This document shows, piece after piece, positions 3,520 through 42,550 of a DNA stretch of 64,000 bases. The position numbers were made by a program, and so were the translations under genes. Source of the stretch: a virus. The DNA is taken from positions 1-64,000 of IMG/VR virus record IMGVR_UViG_3300028534_000004. One strand, given 5' to 3'. A model generated the notes under the pieces. It had not been told where the DNA came from. It saw nothing but the letters and a program-made list of their open reading frames with translations, and made no database searches. Numbering within the stretch: the stretch's first letter is position 1; every line of letters starts with the position of its first letter.

Positions 3520-3543
3520 ATAAAAAAATTAAAAAACAATATT

Positions 3544-10978: not shown

Positions 10979-11040
10979 CGAACATTCTCCAAAACCCTCT
11001 CGTGGATTTATTATACTAGATAATATCTTTATGTCTTTAA

Positions 11041-11733: not shown

Positions 11734-11751
11734 CTTTATTCCGTAGGCATG

Positions 11752-12878: not shown

Positions 12879-12964
12879 GCTCAGGTGGTGAAATTGGCAG
12901 ACACGCAGGACTTAAAATCCTGTAGGTAGTAATACCTGTGAGGGTTCAAGTCCCTCTCTGAGCA
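12879..12964 (+). tRNA. tRNA-Leu(TAA): tRNA-Leu (anticodon TAA)
   Basis: Class II cloverleaf: GCTCAGG TG GTG-AAATTGGCAGA-CAC G CAGGA-CTTAAAA-TCCTG, variable arm TAGGTAGTAATACCTGT, T arm GAGGG-TTCAAGT-CCCTC, TCTGAGC A. Confidence 0.9.
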
Positions 12965-12987
12965 CTAATTTTTAAATAGAAATTATT

Positions 12988-22417: not shown

Positions 22418-23125
22418 ATGTATTCATACACAGAAGATTCATCACAAACACAACAAACAGGATTTGGTTTCGGACTAAATCAAAAATGTTATTTGAAAGA
22501 GTTTAAATTGGTTAAAGACCAGAATAACTATGTTCAAATAACAATCGAAAAAGACGGTAATACTCGTAATCAACGTTATTACGAAATTACTAGAGCTTAT
22601 GGTTCCAACGGAGAAATTATCACAGATAAGAACTCTAAAGAATTTCAACAGGCTCAGTCCCAATTAGCTGCAACTTTGATTCATATTGTCAAAGCTTACA
22701 TTGACGAGGAAATAATCAAAGAAGCTACTAAAGAAGGTAAAACATTTAAGGATTTTACCGAAACATTGACAAGTTTATTACCTGAGAACTATTCCGAGAT
22801 ACCAGTAGATGTGTTCTTAGAATTTCAAAGTAAAATTAAAAAGGGTCAAAAGAGAACGTATCTTGAGATACCTAGATTTGTCAGTTACGGTAAATTCTTT
22901 GTTAAGAACAACGGTAAAGAATATAAAAAGGACATCGTTGAAGATGCTGGCGAATGGGACACTTATTTGCGTTATATCAATGTAGAAGGCGATGAAATGT
23001 TAATTCATCCTTTTAAAAGGAGCAAACATTATATGTCTTCTTCAAGAGCTAAGCAGCAAATAATTGATGATACACCTAAAACTGAGAGTTCTCCGGCTCA
23101 AGATTCCGACGAATTACCTTTTTAA
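22418..23125 (+). CDS. single-stranded DNA-binding protein candidate
   Basis: Located in the replication module, with a low-complexity linker and an acidic C-terminal tip …PAQDSDELPF resembling the SSB-Ct motif DDDIPF. Confidence 0.55.
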   Translation: MYSYTEDSSQTQQTGFGFGLNQKCYLKEFKLVKDQNNYVQITIEKDGNTRNQRYYEITRAYGSNGEIITDKNSKEFQQAQSQLAATLIHIVKAYIDEEIIKEATKEGKTFKDFTETLTSLLPENYSEIPVDVFLEFQSKIKKGQKRTYLEIPRFVSYGKFFVKNNGKEYKKDIVEDAGEWDTYLRYINVEGDEMLIHPFKRSKHYMSSSRAKQQIIDDTPKTESSPAQDSDELPF

Positions 23126-23135
23126 ACGAAAAACT

Positions 23136-24071
23136 ATGTATAGATATACCGAATCCCCAAAGCAGTTAATACTTGAAAATCAAGTATTATTATACTCTTT
23201 ATTGTTTGAGGTTCCTGAACCGAATAAGTACTATAAATCCCCTTTTAGAATAGATAAAAAACCGGGATGTTATTTTTCTTTATATCGCGGTAAAATATAT
23301 TTTGTAGATTGGGGAGATACTCCTACTCATCGAGACATCTTTAAATTTACCTCCGATTTTCTACAACTAAATTTTAAAAACACGTTGGTTTACCTTGTAG
23401 AGTTGTTAGAGACCGGAGAAAAACCTAATGTATCTCTTCAAAAACAATTTGTAGAAAAAAAATCTAAAAGAAAAACTACTTTAAAAATTAAGGAACGTTA
23501 TTATAACAATAAAGATGTGCTGTTTTGGGGTCAATTCGGTTTATCTTTACATGATTTAAAAGGAGATAATTTCAAAGTGGTTCCTATTAAGAGCTATGAG
23601 ACAGAAAAGCGTATTGTATACACTCCAATGTCTTATGCTTTTATATTCAATAGTGGAACTAAAATTTATTCTCCTTACTCCGAAACAAAATGGCTGTCTA
23701 CTGTAAAGAAGAATGATATTGGAAAAATAAACAGAAAAAGAGACAAACTTATACTGACAAAATCAGTAAAAGACGCTTCGTTATTAGCTAAATTGAATTA
23801 TTCAACAATTCTATTTCAATCTGAATCAAGCACCCCCGATTTAGAAAAAATAGCTGAGAATATAAGAGATTTCGACAAAGTAGGCATCCTATTTGACAAT
23901 GATAAGACGGGTAGAGAATATTCTACTCGTCTTTTTTATCTTCTCAAACGTAATTTTCCTTCAAAAGAAGTTACTAGGTTCTTTACACCTAAAGAGAAAG
24001 ATATAACAGATTTTACTAAACAATTTGGGATAAATTCTTCCTATCAAATACTAAAAGATGTATTTATTTGA
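23136..24071 (+). CDS. Toprim-domain primase candidate
   Basis: ATG at 23136; the track ORF begins upstream inside the SSB gene. Has a Toprim-like DxD segment (GILFDNDKTGREYS). No zinc ribbon was seen. Confidence 0.5.
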   Translation: MYRYTESPKQLILENQVLLYSLLFEVPEPNKYYKSPFRIDKKPGCYFSLYRGKIYFVDWGDTPTHRDIFKFTSDFLQLNFKNTLVYLVELLETGEKPNVSLQKQFVEKKSKRKTTLKIKERYYNNKDVLFWGQFGLSLHDLKGDNFKVVPIKSYETEKRIVYTPMSYAFIFNSGTKIYSPYSETKWLSTVKKNDIGKINRKRDKLILTKSVKDASLLAKLNYSTILFQSESSTPDLEKIAENIRDFDKVGILFDNDKTGREYSTRLFYLLKRNFPSKEVTRFFTPKEKDITDFTKQFGINSSYQILKDVFI

Positions 24072-24654
24072 CCAGATACATGAATCTTGGTATCCTGCTT
24101 TTAACTTGTCTAGAAAGTTACATGACGAATTAGAAAAATTATATGAAGAAGAATATGTGGAACCTGCAAAGGAGTACTTATTTGCTCCTTTTAGTGTACC
24201 AATAGATAGTGTCAAATGTGTTACTTTATTCCAAGACCCTTATCCAAATGGAGAAGGAATAGGGTATGCTGTAGCATATAACGAAGAATTTAAAAAACCA
24301 AAATCTTTTCGTATAATTGAAAAAGAATTCGGTAGTGAATTGTCTCCGAGTTTACAAGAATGGAAAGATGTTGGTGTATTAAGTGCTAATGCAGCAATGA
24401 CAGTAAAACACGGATTACCAAATTCACATAGAGAAAAATGGATAAGATTCACCAGTAAGTGGATTGATTATCTAGATAAGAGACAAGAAGTAACTTTTTT
24501 ATTATTCGGAAGAGTTGCTCAAAGTTTTAACAACAATATAGTAGCCAATAGAAGTAGGCTATTTTATGCTCCACATCCTGCTACAAGGCACCACAACTTT
24601 ATAGGATGCGGAATATTTAAAAATTACGAACCTTTTCAAAGCATAAACCTTTAA
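24058..24654 (+). CDS. ung: uracil-DNA glycosylase, family 1-like
   Basis: VTLFQDPYPNGEG matches GQDPYH. GVLSANAAMTV…SH…W..FT…VTFLLFGRVAQ and APHPATRHHNFIGCGIF are collinear with the E. coli Ung motifs (LLLN, FLLWG, HPSP). Confidence 0.85.
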   Translation: MYLFDQIHESWYPAFNLSRKLHDELEKLYEEEYVEPAKEYLFAPFSVPIDSVKCVTLFQDPYPNGEGIGYAVAYNEEFKKPKSFRIIEKEFGSELSPSLQEWKDVGVLSANAAMTVKHGLPNSHREKWIRFTSKWIDYLDKRQEVTFLLFGRVAQSFNNNIVANRSRLFYAPHPATRHHNFIGCGIFKNYEPFQSINL

Positions 24655-24666: not shown

Positions 24667-24882
24667 ATGAGAACTATAACAGTAAATCTTCACTCTCCTT
24701 TAAAGATAGAAACAGATGTAAAAACTTGGGGAGAACTCAAATCTTTGTTAGTTAACGAATATGATTATTCGGCTGACATAGTAGGTCTTAAAGAAGACCT
24801 GACAGTATATGCACAGAGCGATTTCCTTCCTGAAGGAGACTGTGTAGTACCTTTGACTCGTACTAAAACAAAGTTGGGTTAA
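24667..24882 (+). CDS. ubiquitin-like (ThiS/MoaD-type beta-grasp) protein ending in Gly
   Basis: 71 aa. The pattern ITVNL…TWGELKSLL…LPEGDCVVPL is beta-grasp-like. The last codon before the stop is Gly (…TRTKTKLG*). Confidence 0.65.
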   Translation: MRTITVNLHSPLKIETDVKTWGELKSLLVNEYDYSADIVGLKEDLTVYAQSDFLPEGDCVVPLTRTKTKLG

Positions 24883-24900
24883 TAAAAGTTATAAATCGGA

Positions 24901-24931
24901 AAAGAGGGAGCTATATGCTCCCTCTTTTTTT
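24901..24931 (+). terminator. intrinsic terminator
   Basis: AAAGAGGGAGC-TATAT-GCTCCCTCTTT: an 11-bp stem plus a T-run. Confidence 0.8.
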
Positions 24932-24944
24932 AAATAAATAAAAC

Positions 24945-26048
24945 ATGAGCGATATATCACAAACAATAATTAAAACGGAGCTAATTCTGGATAATCTGTA
25001 TCAGAATATCAAAGAACAAATAAAAGATATGCCTTATAACATTTTTCTCGATACAAAGATAGTTGGTTCCAGAGTATACGCTACACTAACGATACATGTT
25101 CCGGAGGTAGAAATAGATAACGGGACTAAAACTCATAAAGCTTTCGATTATCTATTTCATTATAACTTCAAAATAACTCTATACAACGAAAATAATACTA
25201 TTAGTGCTTATCTTACAACAAGTTTAACTAGAATGACTTTTACAATAGAAGAGCTTAATAGTCAATTTATACATCCTCATGCAAGTATCAATGCTGCTGA
25301 AGGTATAGGTACCACAGATATCCCAGGACACAATTGTCATAGGCACTTATGTTTAGGAACCGATACTCCTATTAGTGGTTTTGTAGCATCTATTCGATTT
25401 TTATCCACGCTTGATGAATTGGATAAATGGGCAACTGATAATAGTAATATGTTTCTTATTCATGCATTGTACTTCTTAAAAACAGAAAATTCCGAAGATT
25501 GTTATTCCTCTATTAATTCTCTTAGCGAAAGTAGAATGTATATAAACGTTGAGGACGGTTATAGTACTTACATATCCGCAGGCTCACTTACCGAATCTAT
25601 TCTTGGAAATAAGAAACTGTTAACTCACATAATTACATTTGGAAATTTCGTTAGTGGAGAAAGCTTTAAAATCAGAAGAGATTTACACATTACGAAAACC
25701 GAATTAGAAGAAATTGCTAAGGATTATCCTATAGAGTTTCTAGAAGGTGCACTAGTAAGAATAGATAGCGACGGACGTTATTATAAAAGTAGCAATGAGA
25801 ATACTACTATAAATAACCATCTGTATGCCCAATCCTTTAAAGTAGGAGAAAAAGAATTTCAATTAAAGATATTAGAAAGTGAACAAGAAGAAGAAGTTGT
25901 ATTTTACTTTCTTCCTGCGTTAATTTCTAATTTAGAAAATCGAATCAATCACATATTAAAAATTAATAAAATAAGGGAAAGTTATGAAAGTATATATTCC
26001 GAGTCAAATAATGGCGAAGATACAATTACTAACATCTTACCATTCTAA
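24945..26048 (+). CDS. conserved-Cys protein A (candidate E2-like partner), paralog of 28249..29232
   Basis: 367 aa. Shares with its paralog F(I/L)HPH (H110-P-H112), LCLG (C136, 25350-25352) and FL(K/E)TEN..D.Y.S.NSL. Confidence 0.6.
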   Translation: MSDISQTIIKTELILDNLYQNIKEQIKDMPYNIFLDTKIVGSRVYATLTIHVPEVEIDNGTKTHKAFDYLFHYNFKITLYNENNTISAYLTTSLTRMTFTIEELNSQFIHPHASINAAEGIGTTDIPGHNCHRHLCLGTDTPISGFVASIRFLSTLDELDKWATDNSNMFLIHALYFLKTENSEDCYSSINSLSESRMYINVEDGYSTYISAGSLTESILGNKKLLTHIITFGNFVSGESFKIRRDLHITKTELEEIAKDYPIEFLEGALVRIDSDGRYYKSSNENTTINNHLYAQSFKVGEKEFQLKILESEQEEEVVFYFLPALISNLENRINHILKINKIRESYESIYSESNNGEDTITNILPF

Positions 26049-26964
26049 CCTAGAATGGGTAGGAACTCTACTATATCAATTGAATAAAACCGAAAAAGGA
26101 ACTCTATATATCAATTTAATTGATTTATATCCTTTGAACTACGGCTCTCAAGGTGTAGTAGAAAGTTTGGAAAAATATGCGGTAAATTCCAAAAAATATT
26201 ATTTGGAGAAATATGGTTTTAATTACCACGAGACTTATTTGGAAGGAATTATTCATAGCCACAACACTATGCAAACTTTCTTCAGTGGTACAGACCAGAT
26301 AGACTTTGAGAAATTTGCAAAGACTAATGTTACTATTAGTATAGTAACAAATAACAAATTGGAATTTTACGGCAAAATAGGAATGCCTATTGAAACAATA
26401 TTAGGCAAGAAAGTTTGGGAAGAGGAACTGTCTTTTGTTGTAGATTACGGAGAACCTCCAAAAGAATTTAGCGAGTTAGTACAAGAATTAGCAGATGCCA
26501 GAACTAAAGCTATTAAAAAAAGAAAAACTACTATCGTTACTCGTTGGCCTGATTATTCTAATTATAATAATTACAACGGTTACGGTACTCAAAAAGAAAT
26601 TGATTTTGATGATGATTTCGATGACGACTTTGAAAGTTATCTCGGTGGCTTTATAGAAGAATTAAAAGACACTTATTTAATCTACACTATTCGTGCTAAC
26701 AACGGAGTTATTGCTTACTATGATATTCAGCAATTATGTTCAAAGAATAATATCTCTATCACCTACAGCGATTACGTTGCTCATTTACCCCTTCTTAAAA
26801 AGTACGCCAAATATAACGTAATACTTGAGGAACTTGAAAAGAAAGCAATGAAAAAGAACAAAATCGACAAGAAATTGTTCCTTGAACTTGCCGAACAAAA
26901 ACTCGGTAAGGAAAATCTCGATTATGCACACGATTATTTAAAATTTATTACTTATGAGTTATAG
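25984..26964 (+). CDS. JAB/MPN (JAMM) metalloisopeptidase with long C-terminal extension
   Basis: E24 (LEWVG) and a complete JAMM motif H91-S-H93-x7-S101-x2-D104 (IHSHNTMQTFFSGTD, 26254-26295), followed by an acidic DFDDDFDDDFE tract. Confidence 0.8.
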   Translation: MKVYIPSQIMAKIQLLTSYHSNLEWVGTLLYQLNKTEKGTLYINLIDLYPLNYGSQGVVESLEKYAVNSKKYYLEKYGFNYHETYLEGIIHSHNTMQTFFSGTDQIDFEKFAKTNVTISIVTNNKLEFYGKIGMPIETILGKKVWEEELSFVVDYGEPPKEFSELVQELADARTKAIKKRKTTIVTRWPDYSNYNNYNGYGTQKEIDFDDDFDDDFESYLGGFIEELKDTYLIYTIRANNGVIAYYDIQQLCSKNNISITYSDYVAHLPLLKKYAKYNVILEELEKKAMKKNKIDKKLFLELAEQKLGKENLDYAHDYLKFITYEL

Positions 26965-27694
26965 TAGATTCAAGGGGGCTTCATGGTTCCCCAAGGTAAA
27001 TGCTCTTCCTGTATCTATAATAGGATTAGGAGGAATAGGTAGCTGGGCTTCTTTAGCCATAGCAAGAGCTGGTTTCTTTGTTCGTTTATTTGATTATGAT
27101 ATTGTAGAATTATCAAATACTTCAGGACAATTTTATCCGGATTCCTTTGTAGGAAGAACCAAAGTTAACGCTACAACAGAATTGTTACACTCTTTTACTG
27201 ATACCTATATTTTAGGAGGTAGAACTTATAGAGTAAACGAGGACAGTACATTAGATAATATCACCGTTTGTGCAGTAGATAATTTCGAAGCTAGAAGAAG
27301 TGCTGTAAATGCGTGGTACAATAGTGTTAGCGCTCGTGTTATGACTAACGATACTATAAGTGATAAGCCGCAATTGTTTATAGATGCAAGATTAGAAGCC
27401 GAATTCTTTGAAATTTATGTTATAGAACATAATTCTACGTCTTTTGCAGAGTTTAACAAAACTCTAGTTGACGAGAATTTTCAGGCAGCTACTTGTAGTT
27501 ATAAACAAACAACTCACGTTGCTATGACTCTAGCAGGAATGATAACCGGCAATCTGATAAATTATATTGATAATTTTTATGCCGGTAAAGAAGATAGCAA
27601 TAGACGTGTTATTAAATACGGTTTATATAATGCTATGTATCAGAAGATGATATTCCGAGAAGAATTAAAACAAGAACATTATGTTAACAATTAA
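26954..27694 (+). CDS. ThiF/MoeB/E1-like adenylyltransferase A
   Basis: Contains GLGGIGS, DYDIVELSNTSGQ, DNFEARR, IDARLEAEFF and a conserved Cys181 in TCSYKQTTHVAMTLAGMITGN (27494-27496). Confidence 0.8.
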   Translation: MSYSRFKGASWFPKVNALPVSIIGLGGIGSWASLAIARAGFFVRLFDYDIVELSNTSGQFYPDSFVGRTKVNATTELLHSFTDTYILGGRTYRVNEDSTLDNITVCAVDNFEARRSAVNAWYNSVSARVMTNDTISDKPQLFIDARLEAEFFEIYVIEHNSTSFAEFNKTLVDENFQAATCSYKQTTHVAMTLAGMITGNLINYIDNFYAGKEDSNRRVIKYGLYNAMYQKMIFREELKQEHYVNN

Positions 27695-28259
27695 AACAGT
27701 ATTCGGAGAAGAAATAGATTACTCTACTAGATATAGATTGGATAAGATGTACCTTCTTCCGTCTATCAATCCCTATATACCTTTAAGTGTTTGGGAAAAT
27801 GTTTATCTCATAATAGGTGATAAAGAACCTTATACGGTATTTACTACTTATAAAACTGATGAGTTTCCTTATGTTAAAAAAGTAGCAGGTAGTACATCCA
27901 GTTTATTATTAAGAACATTAGACAGAAGTACAAGATACAGTGGGACTTTTCTATTTGAACTAAATCTGAGTAAAAAACAGGTGTTCTACATAGAAAAAGG
28001 TATGATGTATAGCGAAAAAGGAAATTTACTTTGTTATATAGGAGAACCAGCTTCTAGTAAAGAAACCGATAATCGCGTTTTAGTAATAAATGTTGAAAGG
28101 AGAAATGAAGTTCCTAGATATTTTTTAAATAAATCAGGATTTCCTACTGCTATTTTACCAATGCCTAGGTTATTAAATCAGAATGTTGATTTTCACGAAC
28201 CTAGCTTAACCGATAAAAAAAAACTAATTAAATTAATATCAGATTATTATGAACGATGA
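27681..28259 (+). CDS. hypothetical protein (follows E1-like A)
   Basis: 192-aa ORF overlapping both neighbours. No motif. Confidence 0.6.
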   Translation: MLTIKTVFGEEIDYSTRYRLDKMYLLPSINPYIPLSVWENVYLIIGDKEPYTVFTTYKTDEFPYVKKVAGSTSSLLLRTLDRSTRYSGTFLFELNLSKKQVFYIEKGMMYSEKGNLLCYIGEPASSKETDNRVLVINVERRNEVPRYFLNKSGFPTAILPMPRLLNQNVDFHEPSLTDKKKLIKLISDYYER

Positions 28260-29232
28260 TGATAGCCTTCTGACACCTTCTCTTGAGAAGGTGTTAGTTG
28301 ACACTTTAACTAAACAAAAAGTTGAGTTTGAAATAGCTCGCGATAATGGACACGATACCTTAACATTATATTTTCCGGAAATAACGATAAAAAGAACAGA
28401 TAATTCGGGAGAGTACAAAATTTATGATGTATTTTTTGTTTATACTTTCGGTTATAAAATTAGATACACTGTAATTCGAACCACATTCACTAAACAAGAA
28501 ATAATGTTAGGGTTCTTACATCCTCATGTGAATAATGACTATTTGGTTTTAGTAGATGAAGGTGCGGATTTTGACGAAATGGAAGAGTATGAGGTTGACG
28601 AATATGCTAATAGGTCAACTGATTTATGTTTAGGAAATAGCCCCTTAAAATTATTAGAGACTAATTACAGTTCTCTTACTAAGATAGAAGATAGGCGAAA
28701 ATTAATCGAAGATAATATTTATATGTTAGCGGTACATGCTAAAACTTTTCTGGAAACAGAAAATGTAGGTGATACTTATGTTAGTACAAATTCTCTTGAA
28801 GAAAGAAGCAGAGGCTCCAGATATGTACCTGCCAGATATAGTTACTTCGATAAAGTAGAAATGAAGTCTTTCTTCTCTCGTTATCCGGACCTATGGGAGA
28901 AATTTAAGAAAGAGATAAAAGTTAAAAATAAAAAGGTAAGAATACCTATGATGTTTGAAGTTGATTTACCAGTGAATACAAATAGGGATTTCTTTTCTTT
29001 TTACGATAATGGTAATTGGTACCGTTATCAACAAGTTGAAATCAACGAAAATCAAATAGATTTTTTCTATGATAATTTTCTTGGTATGAAGTTTAAAGAT
29101 AAAATTTATTCTCTTTCAATCATAAAACCAAAATCAAAAACTGACAAAAGCAAAATTTATTTTAGTCCTAAGCTAATTGCTAGTTTGGAAATTTACTTAA
29201 ATAATATGTTATTAATACAATCAATATTATGA
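28249..29232 (+). CDS. conserved-Cys protein B (candidate E2-like partner), paralog of 24945..26048
   Basis: 327 aa with FLHPH (H91-P-H93), an acidic insert, LCLG (C127, 28627-28629) and FLETENVGDTYVSTNSLEE. Confidence 0.6.
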   Translation: MNDDDSLLTPSLEKVLVDTLTKQKVEFEIARDNGHDTLTLYFPEITIKRTDNSGEYKIYDVFFVYTFGYKIRYTVIRTTFTKQEIMLGFLHPHVNNDYLVLVDEGADFDEMEEYEVDEYANRSTDLCLGNSPLKLLETNYSSLTKIEDRRKLIEDNIYMLAVHAKTFLETENVGDTYVSTNSLEERSRGSRYVPARYSYFDKVEMKSFFSRYPDLWEKFKKEIKVKNKKVRIPMMFEVDLPVNTNRDFFSFYDNGNWYRYQQVEINENQIDFFYDNFLGMKFKDKIYSLSIIKPKSKTDKSKIYFSPKLIASLEIYLNNMLLIQSIL

Positions 29233-29975
29233 GTTGGACAGATATTACAAAAAACAGGTTCGCCTCAGCATCATGGGCAGAAAACACTAAAAAGATAGGA
29301 ATTGCCATTATAGGTGTTGGAGGTATCGGTAGTTGGACTGCTTTATTTTTAAAACGCGCTGATTTTGAAGTTAGTGTTATGGATGAAGATAAAGTAGAAC
29401 TAACAAATCTTGGTGGTCAATTATTCACTATAAGAGATATAGGAAGATACAAAACTGTAGCTGTAGACGACTTAGTTTACAATTTAACAGGAAGCAGCTT
29501 AACAACTTATACTGAGAGATTTAACACCAGTAGTCATTTTCTGTATAGCTCGATAGTTATCTCAGCAGTGGACAATGTTGAAACTAGGTATAATATTTTA
29601 GATACTCTACGTCGAGAAGCCCTTAATGATAATTTTAATTCGCCTAAAATTTTAATTGATGCAGGACTAGAAGCCGAATTTTTCACATTGAGGACAATTA
29701 ATATTCTTGATGAAAAAGAAGTAGAAGAATATTTAGGAGAATTAGATGAGTTAGAAAATGTTAAAGCTACGATGTGTAGTTATAAGCAAACTACTCATGT
29801 TGCAGCTATTTTAGCAGGTATGATTACTACCCAAGCAGTAAACATTGCTCATAACTTAACTAACGAAATCAAAAGACCAATACATAAACATTTGGTCTAT
29901 AATGCTACCTATAATAAGGTTATCCAAGAGAAATATAGGGAGGATGAAATATGGGCTTCTATTCAGATAAAATAA
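29229..29975 (+). CDS. ThiF/MoeB/E1-like adenylyltransferase B
   Basis: Contains GVGGIGS, DEDKVELTNLGGQ, DNVETR, IDAGLEAEFF and Cys183 in MCSYKQTTHVAAILAGMIT (29775-29777). Confidence 0.8.
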   Translation: MSWTDITKNRFASASWAENTKKIGIAIIGVGGIGSWTALFLKRADFEVSVMDEDKVELTNLGGQLFTIRDIGRYKTVAVDDLVYNLTGSSLTTYTERFNTSSHFLYSSIVISAVDNVETRYNILDTLRREALNDNFNSPKILIDAGLEAEFFTLRTINILDEKEVEEYLGELDELENVKATMCSYKQTTHVAAILAGMITTQAVNIAHNLTNEIKRPIHKHLVYNATYNKVIQEKYREDEIWASIQIK

Positions 29976-30604
29976 GACCTTTGAAAACAAGGGCAAGTGA
30001 GCAAATTGATACTATAGTAAAATATACTAAAATAAATAGAATGCATCCTTTACATCAATTTGTTTCATTAGGTGATTTTGGTTGCTCAGTTGATAAAGAA
30101 AAAGAGTATTACTCTTTGCAATCACTTAGAGTATTTTTAAATACTCCGATATCAACAAGCGATGAAATAATTATCGAAGATTTACTTAGTATCTCCACTT
30201 ACCTTATTTTTGGACAAGAAACTACTCAAGATGATAAACGTTATTACGAAGCACCAAAGTACTTGTACTCAAGCGGTATCTTTTATGAGTTTAACACTCT
30301 TAAACCGGTAGCTATATTATTAGTAAACAGAATATATGCAAATTACTATAAGACTTTCGATTGTTTATTAGTGACTACAGATTCGGAATTAATAAAATAT
30401 CTTGACACTGCAAAAGTAACGCAATTATCAGAAATTCCTGTTGCTGCTGAAATTAATCATAAAAGATACCATGTTTCATTTGAAGGTAATCGTATAACAG
30501 AATACATAGTAGTAGAAGACACTAACTTTCTTCAAATTATAGAGCCTGAAATATTTTCAGATGATATAGATGAAGGAATATTAAATTATTTTTTCTTATC
30601 ATGA
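29951..30604 (+). CDS. hypothetical protein (follows E1-like B)
   Basis: 217-aa ORF overlapping both neighbours. No motif and no obvious similarity to 27681..28259. Confidence 0.6.
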   Translation: MGFYSDKIRPLKTRASEQIDTIVKYTKINRMHPLHQFVSLGDFGCSVDKEKEYYSLQSLRVFLNTPISTSDEIIIEDLLSISTYLIFGQETTQDDKRYYEAPKYLYSSGIFYEFNTLKPVAILLVNRIYANYYKTFDCLLVTTDSELIKYLDTAKVTQLSEIPVAAEINHKRYHVSFEGNRITEYIVVEDTNFLQIIEPEIFSDDIDEGILNYFFLS

Positions 30605-34653: not shown

Positions 34654-34681
34654 AAGAGGGGAAGCGGCTTCCCCTTTTTTT
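34652..34681. terminator. bidirectional terminator at the convergence of rightward and leftward gene blocks
   Basis: AAAAGA-GGGGAAGC-G-GCTTCCCC-TTTTTTT. It sits between the stop at 34653 (+) and the stop at 34680 (-). Confidence 0.75.
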
Positions 34682-37600
34682 ATTTATTACCATTATGTAA
34701 TCTGCGATATTCACTTAGTAATCTTGCTCTGGCTTTTTTCTTTAGTTTTTCTTCTTCGGATAATCCTTCATCGGACTTTTTAGGTTTAGGTTTTTGGTTT
34801 TCTTTTTCAGCAAATACGTCGGGCCTCATTTCATCCATTAATTTTTCTATTTCTTTATCTTCTCTACGCTCATCGGCTTCCTTAAAAATTTTATCAAACC
34901 AGTCACCTTTAGACCAGTCTTCTTTCATGTAAGAACCAAATCCAAATCCGTGAACAAATCCCGGTACAAAAGTTTTATCTAAATGTTCAGCTAACTTATG
35001 GGATTGGTCAGCAGTGCCTATTCCTAAAGCTAACTTATTTAAATCTACTAATACTCTACCGACACTATCTAACCACTTTAAAACACTTGATTGAGTATAT
35101 GAATCCCAAAATTCTTTAGGATTTAAATACAACGATGCGTTACTTATTAATCCCATTACTTTATTTTCTGCCAGTAAATAAGCTTTCCATTTTAAACCCT
35201 TTTTATCATCATCGTCGTCACCTCTTAGAGAACTAATCATTATCTTGAACAATATTAGCATTAATAAAAAAGAAATCTCTTTTATATTAGCTTCCATATT
35301 ACGTCTATCAATATCACTTAATTTCAATTCTTCTAAATTGACTTTGCCTAGTTTAGTACCTATACCAAATAAATTTAAAGGCATCATTAATGTAGAACGT
35401 AATATATTTTGTGACATTACTATTAGCTCTTTTATTCCACTAATTTCAGATTTCACTCCGTTAGTAGAACTTATCATAGCTCCGGCTAAACCTCCTAATA
35501 CAGCTCCTACAGGTCCTGTAGCTAATCCTACGGCAGCACCCATCATAGCTCCTCCCATAGATGTAAAACTACGCCAACGACCTTTAACTCTACCTACTTT
35601 TAACATACCTTGGTCTTTAGCAAATCTAAGCCATACTTGAGAAGGTAACCATGTTTTGAAGAAGCTTAATACTTTACCTAACAAATATTGTTTAGCTAAG
35701 TTACCACCTAGTTCATCATAATCGCCGTGAGCAAATACAATTGCTTGTACGGTATTAGTTTTAAAATTTATATACTCCTTAGTTTTAATATTTTCCCAAG
35801 TATCAATATTATTAGCAGTACGATATTCCTGTTTTAATCTTAATTTACCATCTTTCATTTCAAAAGCGGTAAATTCTTTTCCGTCAAAAGCAGGTACCTT
35901 AGTAATACTACCATCCTCATTAATTTTCTCCACTTTCATATCCATCATTATCGCGAGTACTATATAACCCTGGTTAAGAAATTCTACATCAGTTATAGAC
36001 CAACGATAAGGACTTAATTTATTTAACTTCTTCAATGAGGATTCTACAGCACCTTTCTGTAATTCATCAGAAGCATCTTGTATTATTCGATAATTCTTCA
36101 TTATAGTTTCCAGGATAGTAAGTTGTTTACCATATTCGGAATTAGGAGACAATCTTTTAGCAAAACTCTTAGACAGAAACTTCTCTGCTAATACTCCGTT
36201 TCCCGGTGTCCAAAACATTCCTGTGGAATCCATAATCATATTAGAAATTTTACCTTCTATACGGTTAGTAATACCTGCATTTATATTATAAGCTAAAGAT
36301 TTAAAAATTAATCCGCTCATGATAAATTCTATGGTTGAAACTATCGAAAAATGTCCTCCTAAGTTTTCACGTTTTATGTACAAATTATTTAAAGTAACAG
36401 CGATTTTTTTAGCTCTTTCATCTTCTCCGATAAATTCATCCAGTTCTTTTTTACTTAAAGCTTTATCAAAGCTTCTTCCTCCTGTCATACTAAACAGATA
36501 TTCTTTGTATTTCTCAATTAATTCTTCCAATTCATCTCTTTGTTGTTTCTCGTCAGTAGTATAAATTTTACCTGTTCTGAGGAATTCCATAAAACTTTTG
36601 AAGTATTTGGTATTTTCGGGTATCCAAGAAAATCCTCTGAAAATACCTCCTCTTTGAATATTAGAATAACCTCTAACTGCTCTATCATAATTAGCATTCA
36701 TTCTTTTAATTGCTCTATCTCTGTATTTACCCTTTTTAGATATTTTACTTAGTGCTTTAGAAGTACCTGTTTCTTTTCCTTCTCTTTCGATTTCATTGTA
36801 TTTTTCTTTTAAAATACGAAGATAAGGTTCCGAAGTCTTTCTAGCCATATACTTAGCAGCATAAATTAATGATACACTCATTATTCGCGGTAAATCTTCC
36901 GAACTTTGTTCCAAGATAGCATGACCTGCGTAGTCGTTAATTACTTTATTCATATTAAGAACAATAGTACTAAAGAAATTTTCAAGAGAAGTTACATTTG
37001 GTTTTATACCAAATAAATCTGCTACAAATTTCATCTCTTCATCTGTCATACTATTAATTAGAACTTCGTTTTCTTCTCCGTGTATAAGTAACCATGTAGC
37101 TTTTTTATTTGCTACAATATCTTGGTACTCTTTAAATCGTTTATCGCGAAGTTGTTTATTAATACCTTTTATATCTTCAGAATATGTATTTTTAGTTTTA
37201 CCTGTACGAATAGCTTTCTTAAAACTATCTCTTCCTTTTTTAAGTAGTTTGACACTTTTACTATCTTTAGTCTCTGAACCTAAAACCAAAGCTTCGATAA
37301 ATGTTTTATCTATCATAGGTATAGAGTTCATAGGAAGATAAGTCTGACTATCAGTAAACGTTTCGTTAATAATTTCTAGAGCTTTATATAAAGCTCTCCA
37401 ATATTTGTACAATACTTCATCATCTCTTATCTCCTTAAAATTAGAATCATAATAGTTAGAAGGTACTTCACCAATCGGAGTTTTAATTTTTGTTCTTGGA
37501 ATAAGATAATTATAATTAGGAATAGAATAAAGAGTGTAAGTTTTATCTTTTGTTTTAACACTAATCATACCATTACCTTCATTAAAAGTCTCCGCAGCAA

Positions 37601-40600
37601 TAAAAGGATTTCTTGATATTATACTAGCGGATAAAGAATACTGTTCTTCAGGGCTTAAGTCCTTGACTTCTTCTACTTCATTTATTTTGAGTTTATTTTC
37701 AATTAATACTTCTCTGTAGTTATAAAAACTTTCTATTTGCTTTATACTTTCTTCAACAATATCGTTATACATGTCTTCCGTTAAAAGATTTTGTAAATCT
37801 TTCTTGTATTTCTGCATTTCTGCATCTTCAAATTTAAAGTATTTCTTGTCTCTCTCCGGAAGTTTATCTTCAAAGTATTCTTTAATTTCCGGTAATTTTC
37901 TAATATCAATCACATGAGTTTTATTCTTAACAGCAGTGTTATATGCAGCAATTTCTTTTTTATTAGTTAAATTACTAGATTTTAATTTAGATACATCTTT
38001 AAACCATTTATCCGAGAATATATGAACTAATCTATTTGTTTTTAATCCATGTTCGTTTCTTTGGAAGAATATATCAAAAGAAGTTATTTTCTTTTCTTTT
38101 TCAACTTTGGTTTTTAAACGCTTCTTTACATCATCTGTTAAAGAATTAAGTTCTTCTAAATAAGGATATATCAAAGCATTAGCTTCTTCTTCTGCTTTAC
38201 GTAATTCGTTAGTAATAATCTGAGGAATATAACTATCTGTTGAGAAGGTATTCATTGCTGCCCTATTCATGTAAGAATCCCATATACTAACATCTTCATA
38301 AGGTCTTACTAAATCTTCTATACTTATATTTTCGCCTAATATAGCAACTAAATCTTCATTATCACGAAGAAGAGTATTAATCTTTGTTTCAACAATTGTT
38401 TCATTAGCGTTCAATAGAGTTTCAAATCCTGTTTTTATACTCTTTAGTTCTTGTACTAATTTAGCTATAGCCTCGTTTGTCTTAACCGATTCTATAATAT
38501 CTTCAGGGTGCTTAAACAAAGGATTATCTTCATTTTTAATAAAGGTACCTGCTCTGGTGTAGAAACTAATGATATTAGCTATTTCTTCCCTATTACCAAT
38601 AGGGTCCTTCATAAGATAAGTAACTTGGTAATAATCACGTTTAGCTATCTCATGAAACAAAGCTAAATAAGTAGTATAACCTTCTGCTTTTAGAAATTTT
38701 TCATTTAAAGCGGTTAACTCTTCTTTTATTGTAACTAATCTTTCGATGTCTTTATATATTTCAGCTGCTTTATTTTTATCTTTTTCAAACCTTGCTCTAA
38801 TTTTCAAATCGCGAATTGTGTACTGTAAATCTTTGAGGTTATATTTTAGATATTCTTCAGCCTTTTTAGCAAATTCTTCTTTAAATTCTAATCCTGAAAT
38901 AGGTTCTCTGTATAATCTCTCGTTTTCTTCTAAATTAGCTAGTTCTTCTAGCTCTAAAAAGTCTTTTTGTGTAATTGGTCTATTTTCTTTTACATACTCT
39001 AAAACGTCCTTAAAATTCGTTTTTAGATATAATCCTTTTTGAGATTCATTATTTACCTTAGCAGCAAATTTTAGTTTAGAAGCCAAAGCATTTAATTGTT
39101 CATCGTTACCGAAAAATTCCAAATAAGTATAATTAGTATTTATTTTATACTCATCTTCAGAGATTCCTAACTCTTCTACAGCGTTTTTTATTTCTTTTTG
39201 TTTATACTCTATTGATAATAACTCTATTTTATCATCTACCGATTTTTGTAAATTAGGATTATAATCTTTATCTGAGTTTAAATAAGAGTACAACTCCTTA
39301 TATCCATAAGACTTTTTATCATCTTCGGTTTTTAAAGGTATAGAGTCCCCAATTGTAGAAGATTTAGGCTCATAATATATATTGTTTGAGTCGTTAAAGG
39401 TTCCTATTTCTTCTTCTTCTAAGTTAAACTTTTCCATTTGTTCTTCTGTAGGAGGAACAGCTGATTTAATATTTTTACTATCAAATACAGCTAAAATATC
39501 AGATGACTCTGTGTTATCTAAAGCCTTATCTTTTACATTCTTAAATAATACTGCGTCATATTTATCTTTAGACCTTACCAAATAACTTAAAAACTTTTTA
39601 GGGTCATATTCTTCTATATCTTCGACTATACGTAGTCTTTTAGCATTGATATAAACAGGTAAAGCATTTTCTCCATAATCTTCAGCTAAACTTTTATTGT
39701 CTGTAAAGAAGAAAGCTAATCTACTATCTTTACTAGCTGTATTAGTACCTTGTAAATCTTCTCTAAACTGAGCAAAATCTTTATTAGTTCCATGATAGAA
39801 CACTTTAGGTTTTCCTTCTTTATCTATTAACTGAGAAACATCATTTCGGAGATTATTTTTAAAAGTAACATTTACATAATCGTCTAATTTTTCTACTTTA
39901 TCTAAATTGCTTTCAATTTCTTTATTACTTTCAAAAGGTTTAACTCCTTCAGCAGTAGCTAAAGTTATATGAGGATGCTTATTGTTACTATATTTATTCT
40001 CTACTAATAATACATCTACTTTATCGGTTTTTAATCTTCCTATTATATGTAATTTCTCTTTTTTATTTTCGTTTTTATTAAATGGTTGTTTTCCAAATTT
40101 AATAGTAGAGTGATGATAAAATTTGTTAGGTAAATCCGAAGGATATTTTTCTTTTAGTTGTTCAGGATTATCTACATTCAAAGCTGTATAAATTGTAGGA
40201 TTCTCCCAATCTCCAAACCACTCCTTAAACTCTTTTGATTTAGTTACATCTTCGTTTTCTTCATAAGATTTAGGTTCGAAATAAATATTTTTACTGTTTT
40301 TGTCAAAAGTTCCTACTTTATCTTCTTCTAAATTAAGTTGTTTAATTTGTTCTTGTGTAGCAGGTAATGCGGATTTTATTTGATTAGAACTAAATACTAC
40401 ATGAGTTCCAAGCTCATGTTCTGGCCACATTACTTCTCCGTCTACATTTATGTATTTTGACAATTTTTCAACTATTTCGCCTGCTTTCTTTGGATTATTT
40501 TCTTGAAATACGTAATGGTTAAAAACCATATCTAATAATTGAAGAAAATCAGAACCAAAATATTCGTTATAATTAATAAAATCTTTATATATTTTTTCAG

Positions 40601-42548
40601 ATATTATTCCGTCTTCGTAAGCTTTTTTAGCAACTTTTAAAGCTTCTTTTTCTTTTTCTAATTTATCACGATTTTTATCATAAAGATTTCTTATATTTAG
40701 AAATACACTATAAACACCGGAGTTTCCTCCTTTTTTATATTCGCCATCAGTATATCTTGTTTTTGCTTTTGTTCTACTCTTTGTAAAATTAAAACCATAT
40801 ATTCTTTTTCTATCAGTAGCACCTGCGTTTATTCTTTCAAAAGTATTAAAACCATAAAAGCTTGTTCCATGATAAACTATCAAAGGTTCTCCGTTCTTAT
40901 CAACTACTTTACTAGCTTCTTTTGGATTATTTATCCAATCTCCAAACCAATTTCTAAATTCTTTACTATATACTCTAGCTTTAGCTTTAATAGCCTCTTC
41001 TTTTGAACCAGTTAATTCTAATAAATCCTTGAATAATTTACTTTCTTTACCATTAGGAGCTTTATCTAAAGAATGTCCGTTGTTTAATTTAATACTTTCC
41101 TTAATCTGGTCCTCAGACAAAGGCTCAAAAGTTGCTAGAATTTCTCCGTCTTTGGTGTTTATTGGAGTTTCTTTAGTATTATTCTTATATGAATCTTCGA
41201 ATATTTTTCTTATCTCCATTAAAATCTCTGGAAATAATTTACCCCATTTACCTTTATCTTGTTTATGTGTTAATATAGCATCTTTTGTGTTTAATAGTTT
41301 TTGTAATGCACCCGGATTTTGTTCAAAAGAGTCGTAAATTAATCTCTTCATTATACCTGGAGCATTTTTGTCCCATTTTTCTACATCTAAGCCTTTTACA
41401 GTTCTTCCGAGTTGTTTAGCTTCTTTACCATTTGTTTTTATAAAGGATTCTATTAATTTTTTTCCTTCTTCGTTTATTATTCCATTATCATCGTAGTAGT
41501 AATTCGAGTACATTATTTTAGCTGCTTGAAATGCTGATTCTACATTTAAGAATTTATACCCGGGAAATAACTCTGTTTCGAAGGACCTCGTTGCAAAATT
41601 TGACAATTCAGGATTTTCATTAGTACCATAATATATATTAATACTCTTTGAACTATTTTCCTTAGCTTTTTTAATAGTATCTTTTACAGCTTTTTCAGTT
41701 TTATTCACTTTTTGTTTATCTAAGTCATCTATAAATTCCCATTTATCCTTTTCAGAGAGGCCTATTATGCTTAGTTGTTTTGCTATAAATAATTTATCTA
41801 ACTTTTCTTTACCGGAAGTAATTTCACTGATAATAGCATTATAAGCTCTTTGAACTTTTAAAGCATTATATCGCGCTTGAGGATTTTTAATTTGAAAAGG
41901 TTTATTAGTGATATAAACTAGCTCGTTTCCGTATTCGTCAATTGCTGTTTCTTCTCCTACAGTTAATATTTTCTTGAATTTTTCAGCTAAATCTTTACGG
42001 ATAAAGAAACCAAACTCCACTTTATCGTCTAATTTCTTTATAGCTTTAAGTAATTCTCTTTCGTTTTTAGCTGCATATTCACTAATTTCAAATATGTTAT
42101 TGACTTTATCGTAAATCCCAAAGAAATAAGTATCGTCAACTTTGACAGAGTTGTACCCATTCAGATATTTAATCAATTCTTCCTTTTCTAAATTACGAGT
42201 ATCTTGATTTTTATTATAGAACTTAGTTCTTAGATAATTAACATATAACTCATTCTGTTCTTCATTATTCAAACTACTTACATCTACATTAGGCTTTACA
42301 TTTATAGATTTATCTTCATTAAGATATTCTTTAAATGCTTTGGAAAAAGTTACAGCTGTATATTTAATTGCCTTTTTTTCATCTTTTTCTATGCTTAAAA
42401 CCTTGTAGTACAAAGGATTAGGACTTCCTTCTTTAGTTAACCAGATAGGATTATTATTATTTTCAGCATAAATTTTCTTAGTAAGAATTGTACCAAGAAC
42501 TTTTTCCATTCTTTTATATTCGTCTGTTGTAGGATTTGGACATTTCAT
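34680..42548 (-). CDS. giant polyvalent virion/ejection protein candidate (NADAR + ART-like x2 + 2H-like + membrane segments)
   Basis: Uninterrupted ORF. The track start at 42557 is TTG; the first ATG at 42548 lies 2 nt after the upstream stop. Domain evidence is given in the sub-features. The long Lys/Glu-rich helical middle and Gly-zipper hydrophobic C-terminal part are typical of ejected internal proteins. Confidence 0.85.
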   Translation of the reverse strand: MKCPNPTTDEYKRMEKVLGTILTKKIYAENNNNPIWLTKEGSPNPLYYKVLSIEKDEKKAIKYTAVTFSKAFKEYLNEDKSINVKPNVDVSSLNNEEQNELYVNYLRTKFYNKNQDTRNLEKEELIKYLNGYNSVKVDDTYFFGIYDKVNNIFEISEYAAKNERELLKAIKKLDDKVEFGFFIRKDLAEKFKKILTVGEETAIDEYGNELVYITNKPFQIKNPQARYNALKVQRAYNAIISEITSGKEKLDKLFIAKQLSIIGLSEKDKWEFIDDLDKQKVNKTEKAVKDTIKKAKENSSKSINIYYGTNENPELSNFATRSFETELFPGYKFLNVESAFQAAKIMYSNYYYDDNGIINEEGKKLIESFIKTNGKEAKQLGRTVKGLDVEKWDKNAPGIMKRLIYDSFEQNPGALQKLLNTKDAILTHKQDKGKWGKLFPEILMEIRKIFEDSYKNNTKETPINTKDGEILATFEPLSEDQIKESIKLNNGHSLDKAPNGKESKLFKDLLELTGSKEEAIKAKARVYSKEFRNWFGDWINNPKEASKVVDKNGEPLIVYHGTSFYGFNTFERINAGATDRKRIYGFNFTKSRTKAKTRYTDGEYKKGGNSGVYSVFLNIRNLYDKNRDKLEKEKEALKVAKKAYEDGIISEKIYKDFINYNEYFGSDFLQLLDMVFNHYVFQENNPKKAGEIVEKLSKYINVDGEVMWPEHELGTHVVFSSNQIKSALPATQEQIKQLNLEEDKVGTFDKNSKNIYFEPKSYEENEDVTKSKEFKEWFGDWENPTIYTALNVDNPEQLKEKYPSDLPNKFYHHSTIKFGKQPFNKNENKKEKLHIIGRLKTDKVDVLLVENKYSNNKHPHITLATAEGVKPFESNKEIESNLDKVEKLDDYVNVTFKNNLRNDVSQLIDKEGKPKVFYHGTNKDFAQFREDLQGTNTASKDSRLAFFFTDNKSLAEDYGENALPVYINAKRLRIVEDIEEYDPKKFLSYLVRSKDKYDAVLFKNVKDKALDNTESSDILAVFDSKNIKSAVPPTEEQMEKFNLEEEEIGTFNDSNNIYYEPKSSTIGDSIPLKTEDDKKSYGYKELYSYLNSDKDYNPNLQKSVDDKIELLSIEYKQKEIKNAVEELGISEDEYKINTNYTYLEFFGNDEQLNALASKLKFAAKVNNESQKGLYLKTNFKDVLEYVKENRPITQKDFLELEELANLEENERLYREPISGLEFKEEFAKKAEEYLKYNLKDLQYTIRDLKIRARFEKDKNKAAEIYKDIERLVTIKEELTALNEKFLKAEGYTTYLALFHEIAKRDYYQVTYLMKDPIGNREEIANIISFYTRAGTFIKNEDNPLFKHPEDIIESVKTNEAIAKLVQELKSIKTGFETLLNANETIVETKINTLLRDNEDLVAILGENISIEDLVRPYEDVSIWDSYMNRAAMNTFSTDSYIPQIITNELRKAEEEANALIYPYLEELNSLTDDVKKRLKTKVEKEKKITSFDIFFQRNEHGLKTNRLVHIFSDKWFKDVSKLKSSNLTNKKEIAAYNTAVKNKTHVIDIRKLPEIKEYFEDKLPERDKKYFKFEDAEMQKYKKDLQNLLTEDMYNDIVEESIKQIESFYNYREVLIENKLKINEVEEVKDLSPEEQYSLSASIISRNPFIAAETFNEGNGMISVKTKDKTYTLYSIPNYNYLIPRTKIKTPIGEVPSNYYDSNFKEIRDDEVLYKYWRALYKALEIINETFTDSQTYLPMNSIPMIDKTFIEALVLGSETKDSKSVKLLKKGRDSFKKAIRTGKTKNTYSEDIKGINKQLRDKRFKEYQDIVANKKATWLLIHGEENEVLINSMTDEEMKFVADLFGIKPNVTSLENFFSTIVLNMNKVINDYAGHAILEQSSEDLPRIMSVSLIYAAKYMARKTSEPYLRILKEKYNEIEREGKETGTSKALSKISKKGKYRDRAIKRMNANYDRAVRGYSNIQRGGIFRGFSWIPENTKYFKSFMEFLRTGKIYTTDEKQQRDELEELIEKYKEYLFSMTGGRSFDKALSKKELDEFIGEDERAKKIAVTLNNLYIKRENLGGHFSIVSTIEFIMSGLIFKSLAYNINAGITNRIEGKISNMIMDSTGMFWTPGNGVLAEKFLSKSFAKRLSPNSEYGKQLTILETIMKNYRIIQDASDELQKGAVESSLKKLNKLSPYRWSITDVEFLNQGYIVLAIMMDMKVEKINEDGSITKVPAFDGKEFTAFEMKDGKLRLKQEYRTANNIDTWENIKTKEYINFKTNTVQAIVFAHGDYDELGGNLAKQYLLGKVLSFFKTWLPSQVWLRFAKDQGMLKVGRVKGRWRSFTSMGGAMMGAAVGLATGPVGAVLGGLAGAMISSTNGVKSEISGIKELIVMSQNILRSTLMMPLNLFGIGTKLGKVNLEELKLSDIDRRNMEANIKEISFLLMLILFKIMISSLRGDDDDDKKGLKWKAYLLAENKVMGLISNASLYLNPKEFWDSYTQSSVLKWLDSVGRVLVDLNKLALGIGTADQSHKLAEHLDKTFVPGFVHGFGFGSYMKEDWSKGDWFDKIFKEADERREDKEIEKLMDEMRPDVFAEKENQKPKPKKSDEGLSEEEKLKKKARARLLSEYRRLHNGNK
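35236..35580 (-). other. hydrophobic / glycine-zipper segments near the C-terminus of the 2,6xx-aa protein
   Basis: SMGGAMMGAAVGLATGPVGAVLGGLAGAMISS and ISFLLMLILFKIMISSL, followed by a DDDDD tract. Confidence 0.6.
39459..39842 (-). other. ART-like module 2, aa 906-1033
   Basis: IDKEGKPKVFYHGTNKDFAQF … LAFFFTDNKSLAEDYG … LPVYINAKRL … ILAVFDSKNIKSA. Same pattern as module 1 in a more compact form. Confidence 0.5.
39843..40202 (-). other. 2H-phosphoesterase-like module, aa about 786-905
   Basis: Two H-x-[TS] motifs: YHHSTIKF (aa 815-818) and KHPHITLAT (H863-I-T865, 39963-39971). It is preceded by a second SKEFKEWFGDW leader. The spacing between the motifs (about 47 aa) is shorter than in LigT or Acb1. 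Confidence 0.35.
40368..40967 (-). other. ART-like module 1 (polyvalent-protein ADP-ribosyltransferase type), aa 531-730
   Basis: SKEFRNWFGDW…KVVDKNGEPLIVYHGTSFYGFNTFE … YGFNFTKSR … VYSVFLNIRNL … HVVFSSNQIKSA. This follows the leader-VYHGT-…-IKSA pattern of ART domains in phage polyvalent proteins. Confidence 0.55.
41199..41642 (-). other. NADAR (YbiA/DUF1768-type) domain, aa 306-453 of the track ORF
   Basis: ELSNFA … NVESAFQAAK … GKEAKQLGR … VEKWD … IMKRLIYDSFEQNPGALQKLLNTKDAILTH … DKGKWG. These follow the order and spacing of the NADAR signature (FSNF, E..fQa.K, ak.lGr, W, KF.qn..l...LL.T, D..WG). Confidence 0.7.
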
Positions 42549-42550
42549 AA

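Follow-up and report, generated by a model that had tools for sequence, protein, structure and literature searches.

E1-like enzymes, a JAMM peptidase and a candidate ubiquitin-like modifier in a gene module of crAss-like phages

Results and discussion

Gene content of the cassette

The window, a stretch of 64,000 nucleotides (positions 1 to 64,000 of the IMG/VR virus record IMGVR_UViG_3300028534_000004), contains at positions 24667 to 30604 a cassette of eight genes that the original prediction had described as a phage-borne ubiquitin-like conjugation cassette. All genes are located on the plus strand and are closely packed, mostly overlapping by 4-65 nt. This layout, predicted from the letters and a list of open reading frames (ORFs), was confirmed by an ORF check and by a second gene caller on the 86-kb source contig, which returned the same eight genes, seven of them with identical lengths. 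The peptidase was called with 317 aa, 9 codons shorter than the 326 aa of the ORF, implying a start near 26011. A Crassvirus muzzle domain (PF25731, E=2e-25) in a 1,200-aa protein encoded at 60325-63927 on the minus strand identifies the window as part of a crAss-like phage. The genes are listed with the support for their assignment, mostly scores of family hidden Markov models (HMMs); Ubl denotes a ubiquitin-like protein, E1 an activating and E2 a transfer enzyme of ubiquitin-like systems.

24667..24882, plus strand: Ubl, candidate ubiquitin-like modifier of 71 aa, ending with Gly71 (…KTKLG-stop); family HMM E=3e-13
24945..26048, plus strand: X1, member of the X family, 367 aa; family HMM E=3e-42
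25984..26964, plus strand: JAB, assigned as JAMM/MPN+ metallopeptidase (N-terminal ~150 aa) with an additional C-terminal domain; JAMM motif and family profile
26954..27694, plus strand: E1a, assigned as single-domain E1/ThiF-type adenylation enzyme, 246 aa, with Cys181; PF00899 61.5 bits
27681..28259, plus strand: Y1, member of the Y family, 192 aa; family HMM E=6e-19, sequence not in the seed
28249..29232, plus strand: X2, second X paralog, 327 aa, with H91, H93 and C127; family HMM E=2e-46
29229..29975, plus strand: E1b, second E1-like paralog, 248 aa, with Cys183; PF00899 63.9 bits
29951..30604, plus strand: Y2, ORF of 217 aa in the Y position after E1b; module membership inferred from position only

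A widespread five-gene module

A widespread five-gene module underlies the window cassette, which elaborates it in a lineage-specific way. Synteny was scored with locally built HMMs on fetched loci, and the fixed order Ubl(-extension)–X–JAB–E1–Y was present in 70/85 and then in 50/85 of these (120 of about 170). Most of the remaining loci are contig fragments with an in-order subset of the module genes. The module order holds no additional conserved gene, and a Ubl homolog heads the module wherever the module was found. A tblastn search with E1a retrieved 74 phage records, affiliated to ΦcrAss001-type Steigviridae (Kehishuvirus, Kolpuevirus, Mahlunavirus) and to FpV4-type phages of Flavobacterium psychrophilum. 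The E1 subfamily occurred in 345 IMG/VR contigs and in at least 381 metagenome stretches. In a set of 185,579 species genomes it was detected in just 5 contigs of metagenome-assembled genomes, and those five resemble phage DNA; the subfamily is essentially phage-only. The module neighbours are genes of nucleotide and DNA metabolism, encoding primase, uracil-DNA glycosylase (UDG), nucleases and ribonucleotide reductase (RNR).

A second X–E1 set was present only in the window phage, to which one further locus carrying it also belongs. In neighbour-joining trees E1a and E1b are sisters, as are X1 and X2. Thus X and E1 were co-duplicated within this lineage, with Ubl and JAB single, and this co-duplication suggests a specific partnership of X and E1. 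The most elaborate form of the module is that of the window phage, where the Ubl is free and the E1–X branch is duplicated. Phage records yielded zero matches in a nucleotide search with the window, and a metagenome scan did not find a close relative of the window phage. In the survey of related phages, which had been proposed for co-occurrence of the paralog pairs, X accompanies E1 in the module and the duplicated pairs are confined to the window phage. The earlier statement that the cassette matches no described system has to be revised. A literature search on crAss-like phages in connection with ThiF, JAB and ubiquitin or Ubl systems gave nothing relevant, and no paper describing the module was found; the single-copy module, however, is common in crAss-like phages, with its E1 gene mislabelled.

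E1-like proteins, peptidase and modifier

E1a and E1b are, judged from their sequences, true adenylation domains of the E1/ThiF family. Both exceeded the gathering cut-off of 28.1 bits for PF00899 (ThiF), E1a with 61.5 bits (E=9e-17) and E1b with 63.9 bits (E=2e-17), and they share 37% identity (E=9e-35), in line with their initial description as paralogous ThiF/MoeB/E1 domains. The motifs named at that time (GxGGIGS, DxDxVEL(S/T)N, DNxExR and CSYKQTTHVA) are all present. Invariant or nearly so among 144 distinct homologs were R5, G24/G26/G27, D47/D49, N55, K70, D109-N110, R114, D144 and C181-x-x-K184-Q185, and E1b retains every residue that is invariant in the subfamily. The best relative in the PDB is UBA5 (E=1e-9 for E1a alone, 2e-14 for the family profile), followed by MccB, PaaA, ThiF, Uba1, TcdA and MoeB. 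The nucleotide-binding residues could be matched in register to those of UBA5, comprising the Gly-rich loop, the acidic residue after beta-2, the Lys, the D-N…R motif and the N-terminal Arg finger. C181 is conserved in 144/144 homologs and in the profile alignment is colinear with the Cys of UBA5 'VCAASLPTT', which we take to be C250. The segment around C181 scored weakly alone, yet it is in register with the next helix and the terminal YNA motif. In UBA5, C250 is the catalytic Cys and is located close to the C-terminal end of the crossover loop (PMC11601596). Hence the invariant Cys of the original prediction falls on the UBA5 crossover-loop position, where C181 and C183 are putative thioester cysteines. 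Two further traits concern the E1 subfamily. An invariant K-Q pair lies three residues after the Cys. The E1 proteins of ΦcrAss001-type and cr128-type phages carry an additional N-terminal extension of 95-140 aa (e.g., locus L003, 5587-6696; locus L001, 5731-6696), which had no family match and is missing from the window and FpV4 forms.

The 326-aa product is assigned to the JAMM/MPN+ metallopeptidases. The complete motif E…H-x-H-x7-S-x2-D that had been recognized in this gene proved to be a family trait: E24, H91, S92, H93 and S101 are invariant in 129/129 homologs, D104 in 128/129. With the JAB family profile, all 27 hits to the PDB with E≤1 were JAMM isopeptidases, including PfJAMM1, RPN11 and CSN5 (E=0.003-0.04). 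The Pfam model Prok-JAB matched with E=0.003 and 17.8-20.4 bits, below its cut-off of 25.

The modifier candidate ends, as first described, with …KTKLG before the stop, and at the position of Gly71 an invariant Gly is present in 116/116 homologs, as part of a K-x-(K/R)-S-G motif. Other conserved residues are T20, L54 and P55. Every homolog runs on past the invariant Gly, to a total length of 146-290 aa, apart from one of 92 aa with an apparent frameshift; the window protein ends exactly at the Gly, and those of all other phages are extended. It thus represents a naturally pre-processed form. The best argument for the Gly-terminated domain as the functional unit is the truncation at the Gly in a phage that kept its JAMM gene, and the arrangement suggests that the JAMM peptidase matures the extended precursors of the other phages. 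A search of the window for an extension-like domain encoded elsewhere was negative. In L001-L003 and about 110 other loci the extension, which has no counterpart in the window, opens with a conserved 'AMSRxEAYxxIK'. Among crAss-like phages it closes with a conserved 'EI(D/N)xMFxF' tip. At locus L070 (2725-3003) a crAss-like Ubl ends two residues past the invariant Gly (…KSG-KF-stop), and the extension is apparently encoded in a separate ORF at 3536-3928, which reflects a frameshift or an assembly error, or else another case of a natural split at the Gly. An identity of a Ubl helix or of the extension as HeH/SAP was dropped, since it depended on isolated weak matches.

Partner proteins X and Y

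X1 and X2, upstream of the two E1 genes in the window, had been noted as a paralog pair with an invariant Cys at C136 and C127, and this was borne out by 29% identity across 161 aa (E=1e-14). H112, C136 and G138 (X1 numbering) are invariant in 128/128 X sequences, and the conservation of R96, H110 and E181 is almost complete; X2 keeps every family-invariant residue. C136 and C127 follow the second His at a distance of 24 and 34 positions, the spacings initially reported. Counted as residues between H-(S/P)-H and C-x-G, the spacing ranges from 12 to 33 across the homologs with a mode of 15, and is 23 and 33 in X1 and X2; a UBC fold would be expected to have its catalytic Cys within a few residues of an HPN-type motif. 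The X family diverges very fast, down to ~15% identity between clades. A word-index search for homologs with X1 returned only X1 itself, and an exhaustive HMMER search with an X1+X2 profile gave two weak outside matches only; single-sequence methods fail on X as a consequence of its fast evolution. The H-S-H motif that X has in common with JAMM proteins raised the possibility of a divergent JAMM, and a permuted papain-like peptidase and a rhodanese were considered as well; these three candidates were dropped because Foldseek, run with the model of an X homolog, returned no such folds.

The genes in the Y position were said to be unrelated ORFs. Y1 and Y2 indeed share no similarity, and Y2 reached a probability of 0.2% in hhalign against the Y profile. 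Y1, however, has relatives, as it falls (E=6e-19) into a family that related phages conserve at the position downstream of E1. Conservation within this family is limited to P34, a YY pair, G107 and L117. Neither Y1 nor Y2 matched a family in Pfam, PHROG, PADLOC or NCBIfam.

Proposed mechanism and alternatives

We lean, if slightly, towards a phage-encoded Ubl activation and thioester-based transfer, in which the JAMM peptidase serves processing and deconjugation. In most phages, the Ubl would be synthesised with a C-terminal extension, and the JAMM peptidase would cut this precursor right after the invariant Gly, a step not needed in the window phage. The UBA5-like single-domain E1 would adenylate the Gly carboxylate and then bind the Ubl as thioester on the crossover-loop Cys (C181 in E1a, C183 in E1b). 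The cognate X protein, as an E2 analog lacking a recognisable UBC fold, would then receive the Ubl on its invariant Cys and pass it to targets, with Y as adaptor or substrate. The JAMM peptidase may additionally reverse the conjugates. With X, E1 and the gene in Y position doubled and Ubl and JAB single, the window phage would operate one modifier with two activation and transfer branches. Three observations support this mechanism: the gene order matches bilA-bilB-bilC-bilD, the single terminal Gly in combination with a UBA5-like E1 parallels UFM1, and X and E1 were co-duplicated.

A number of results weigh against it. In the E1 family, the canonical Arg of the phosphate-binding motif N-x-x-R-Q is replaced by Gly58 in 144/144 homologs, so that 'NMNRLF' of UBA5 aligns with 'N(T/L)(S/G)GQ(F/L)', and the Zn-binding Cys tetrad is missing. 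Due to these two losses adenylation is plausible, but not assured; G58 and the K-Q pair may represent a compensating or altered mode of nucleotide binding. For the Ubl, hhalign comparisons with ubiquitin, NEDD8, ThiS and MoaD (reference sequences entered by hand) stayed <1%, and there were no ThiS, MoaD or ubiquitin family matches in Pfam or among PDB sequences. Hints of a beta-grasp came from weak matches to DIX (E=0.04-0.6) and DWNN, and from a residue pattern that appears ubiquitin-like by eye; this fold is unproven. The Y family has no conserved Lys or catalytic residue, and a target for tagging could not be identified.

The altered phosphate-binding motif also hints at a different nucleotide chemistry, in line with a module that does not tag proteins. 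The E1-like enzymes would then modify the C-terminus of a peptide as MccB and PaaA do, or catalyse a TcdA-like dehydration, and the JAMM peptidase would mature a Ubl-extension polyprotein to release a replication-associated protein. In its favour, the closest solved relatives include MccB, PaaA and TcdA, and the Ubl of every other phage makes up only the N-terminal portion of a larger protein. We consider this very unlikely: a free Ubl that ends at the invariant Gly beside a retained JAMM gene argues for a Gly-terminated functional unit, and the invariant Cys at the catalytic position of UBA5 favours thioester chemistry over an MccB-type reaction.

Scans of X, Y and Ubl family members in Pfam, PADLOC and NCBIfam produced isolated weak matches under the cut-offs. 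Searches with X against Pfam, PADLOC, NCBIfam and PDB sequences gave nothing above any curated cut-off; the best family match of X1 was an ETEC_3214 domain with 16 bits against a cut-off of 35, and profile searches of the PDB produced only a chance match to a cellulose-binding module. Comparisons with canonical E2 proteins in hhalign (reference sequences entered by hand) gave probabilities of 0.2-0.3%. An AlphaFold model of X1 from 23 sequences had a mean predicted local distance difference test score (pLDDT) of 42 and was uninformative in Foldseek. A ΦcrAss001-type X homolog (P0005) was modelled instead from 130 sequences, with a pLDDT of 77 overall and ~80-97 over the conserved core. Its Foldseek search against the PDB found no match (best E=3.7), and the significant matches were solely uncharacterised proteins of crAss-like phages in BFVD. 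The order of its secondary structures (helix, beta-strands, H-x-H, Cys, helices) is reminiscent of UBC, but was not counted as evidence. The suggestion that the 367- and 327-aa proteins are E2 enzymes of UBC fold is therefore not supported: as modelled, X appears to have a fold for which no UBC or other known relative was detectable. A role of X as thioester carrier is inferred from one invariant Cys and the synteny.

Conjugation may also proceed with E1 alone, similar to SAMP/UbaA or TtuB/TtuC; prokaryotic conjugation systems with only E1 and JAMM exist. X and Y would then be the main substrates or regulated replication factors, and the conserved residues of X would form a structural metal site. 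A set of H-x-H, Cys and Glu is typical for a Zn site, no UBC or other thioester-carrier fold was found for X, and E1b matches weakly the model of the SAMP-activating UbaA. The strict co-duplication and co-phylogeny of X and E1, however, fits an enzyme–enzyme pairing better than a substrate, and the absolute invariance of C-x-G despite ~15% identity suggests catalysis. We regard this E2-free conjugation as improbable.

The module may instead belong to a sulfur-carrier pathway. In this case the E1-like enzyme would adenylate the Ubl, host persulfide donors would convert it to the C-terminal thiocarboxylate, and the sulfur would be used for a product such as a thio-modified nucleotide or cofactor of phage DNA metabolism. 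X, with its Cys, His and Glu, would be the enzyme that accepts or uses the sulfur, and the JAMM peptidase would expose the Gly or free the adduct, as in CysO/Mec+ and QbsE/QbsD. The ThiF and MoeB models were the top NCBIfam matches and both proteins are among the PDB relatives; the module is located amid primase, UDG, nuclease and RNR genes, and X was not an E2 in any test. ThiF-type enzymes with a JAMM partner also occur in pathways with sulfur carriers, which counts against conjugation. A JAMM together with a Ubl fusion is known from sulfur pathways (PMC1779556). On the other side, the ThiF and MoeB equivalogs reached at best 53-62 bits against cut-offs of 152-650 (e.g., 53-62 vs 159), and the UbaA and PRTRC_ThiF models of NCBIfam were likewise missed widely. 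The GenBank label 'thiamine biosynthesis protein' of the E1 homologs is an over-annotation, because all ThiF/MoeB equivalog cut-offs were missed. No sulfurtransferase, rhodanese, PP-loop, cysteine desulfurase or enzyme domain dependent on pyridoxal phosphate (PLP) was detected in the module proteins, and there is no additional conserved gene in the module. The Ubl tail is Ser-Gly, or Leu-Gly in the window, and not Gly-Gly. Sulfur carriers almost always end with Gly-Gly; the conjugated UFM1, ATG8 and ATG12 do not. Finally, the closest solved relative, UBA5, is a conjugation enzyme. Overall, sulfur carriage is less likely than conjugation through X, but the most probable of the alternatives considered.

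Returning to conjugation, a far-reaching version would be that crAss-like phages, including ΦcrAss001, run their own Ubl conjugation from the replication module, with X as an E2 analog of a new fold, with targets in the phage replisome, the host or the host defence proteins that serve to control infection, and with two target specificities from the duplicated E1–X pair. It would be the first such system in a virus of bacteria and possibly a counter to Bil or to type II of the cyclic oligonucleotide-based antiphage signaling system (CBASS). This version as a whole is tentative and in our view doubtful.

Comparison with known systems

Bil has the same four roles in the same order, bilA-bilB-bilC-bilD being Ubl–E2–JAB–E1 (PMC10557695, PMC11601596); both systems have a Gly-terminated Ubl and do not encode a ligase (E3). 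In contrast, the BilD-type E1 consists of an inactive and an active adenylation domain in tandem (IAD-AAD) with a mobile CYS domain, the phage E1 of a single 246-aa domain with crossover-loop Cys; BilB is an E2 of UBC fold, a fold not detectable in X. The PADLOC models of Bil were unmatched (BilA, BilB and BilC none) save a weak, Rossmann-only match of BilD with E=0.006. Moreover, the phage module is phage-borne, not part of a host defence island, and has the additional conserved gene Y. Type II CBASS (Cap2/Cap3) has a fused E2-E1 beside a CD-NTase and an effector; its E1-E2 models in PADLOC match the Rossmann N-part only, with E from 1.6e-7, and no CD-NTase (the cyclic-nucleotide synthase class) or CBASS effector gene was found in the neighbourhood of the cassette. 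The type I Bub systems (6E/DUF6527; BubAB, BubCD, BubE) share the fusion precursor: their JAB cuts the Ubl fusion right after the conserved Gly, and the minimal homodimeric Bub E1 is most similar to UBA5 and ThiF (PMC11601596). Bub works, however, by Ser/Tyr oxyesters and has no catalytic Cys, whereas the phage E1 and X each have an invariant one. Bub fuses JAB to E1 and Ubl to E2; in the phages JAB and E1 are two proteins, and the extension to which the Ubl is fused is not an E2. A DUF6527-type protein was not found alongside the phage module.

The UBA5–UFM1 system resembles the phage module in the combination of one terminal Gly with an E1 of the UBA5 type, UBA5 being the best solved relative with its Cys in the same place of the crossover loop. 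Removal of its C-terminal extension leaves UFM1 with one Gly as the last residue. Differences are the Arg of N-M-N-R and the Zn-binding cysteines of UBA5, replaced by Gly58 or lost in the phage E1, the UFC1-like E2, which was undetectable, and the maturing protease, a JAMM and not a Cys protease. A phage precedent is found in the tail-assembly genes of lambda and T1. TAPI has a Ubl domain whose conserved C-terminal Gly precedes a linker and another domain, and is paired with the JAB protein TAPK; for lambda, JAB cleavage at the conserved Gly of the Ubl was predicted (PMC1779556). TAPI/TAPK belong to a tail-assembly cluster and lack an E1, whereas the phage module is part of a replication block and includes E1, X and Y.

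PRTRC cassettes combine a ThiF-family protein and a JAB-like protein (PRTRC protein A) beside DNA-handling genes on plasmids and integrative and conjugative elements. PRTRC_ThiF (TIGR03736) was the second-best NCBIfam match of E1b (E=1e-14, 54.5 vs a cut-off of 144.75 bits), and JAB matched PRTRC_A (TIGR03735) with E=0.016 and 14.8 vs 101.8 bits. These scores are well under the cut-offs, homologs of PRTRC B-F and ParB were not found, and PRTRC itself is uncharacterised. The archaeal SAMP/UbaA/JAMM1 and the TtuB/TtuC system of Thermus likewise unite a prokaryotic Ubl with a single-domain E1 and a JAMM, and PfJAMM1 was the top PDB match of the JAB profile. The Ubl proteins SAMP and TtuB end with Gly-Gly and double as sulfur carriers; both systems are cellular and are without X or Y partners.

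The prokaryotic systems of Ubl, E1 and JAB that have been characterised to date, Bil, type II CBASS and Bub, belong to bacteria and have a shown or proposed role against phages (PMC10557695, PMC11601596); here the genes are encoded by the phage. The module is kept across hundreds of genomes of a phage group that ranks among the most abundant in the human gut, amid replication genes, and couples a minimal UBA5-like E1 and a JAMM to two conserved proteins without detectable relatives. Conjugation would mean a viral post-translational tagging with a new kind of transfer enzyme, and sulfur carriage would point to a new phage metabolite or modification of nucleic acids. Both possibilities can be tested directly, given that ΦcrAss001 and FpV4 can be cultured. 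In any case, the widespread mis-annotation as 'thiamine biosynthesis protein ThiF' is corrected.

Genomic neighbourhood

Around the cassette, the plus strand encodes helicases, a DnaB-like protein, an AAA_24 ATPase, a primase, a UDG-like protein and an RNA ligase. The UDG-like gene (24058-24654, plus strand) is directly upstream of Ubl in the window and in FpV4; in ΦcrAss001-type genomes a UDG gene is directly downstream of Y. The adjacency of module and UDG therefore survives rearrangement. Upstream of the primase, a 235-aa protein (22418-23125, plus strand) carries an acidic tip …DSDELPF similar to that of single-stranded DNA-binding protein (SSB). Comparable ends are …TNILPF in X1 and …EDLPF or …RDLPY in Y proteins of FpV4-type phages (loci with such tails include L002, 6672-7760, and L005, 2351-3667). 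SSB-like tails could dock these proteins on one shared replisome partner. As a general feature of the module they were dropped, being sporadic in X (4/76) and Y (4/69).

Three tRNA genes are located on the plus strand at 10905-10979 (Ile, gat), 11661-11734 (Met, cat) and 12879-12965 (Leu, taa). The minus strand contains two very large ORFs. The first, of 2,625 aa (34680-42557), has a NADAR domain (residues 310-439) and an ART-PolyVal ADP-ribosyltransferase domain (553-731) and resembles the polyvalent proteins, which are presumed to be injected along with the phage DNA. The second, of 4,491 aa (42551-56026), is of exceptional size for a phage protein and had no Pfam hits at E≤0.001; it may be a crAss-type virion RNA polymerase or a cargo protein.

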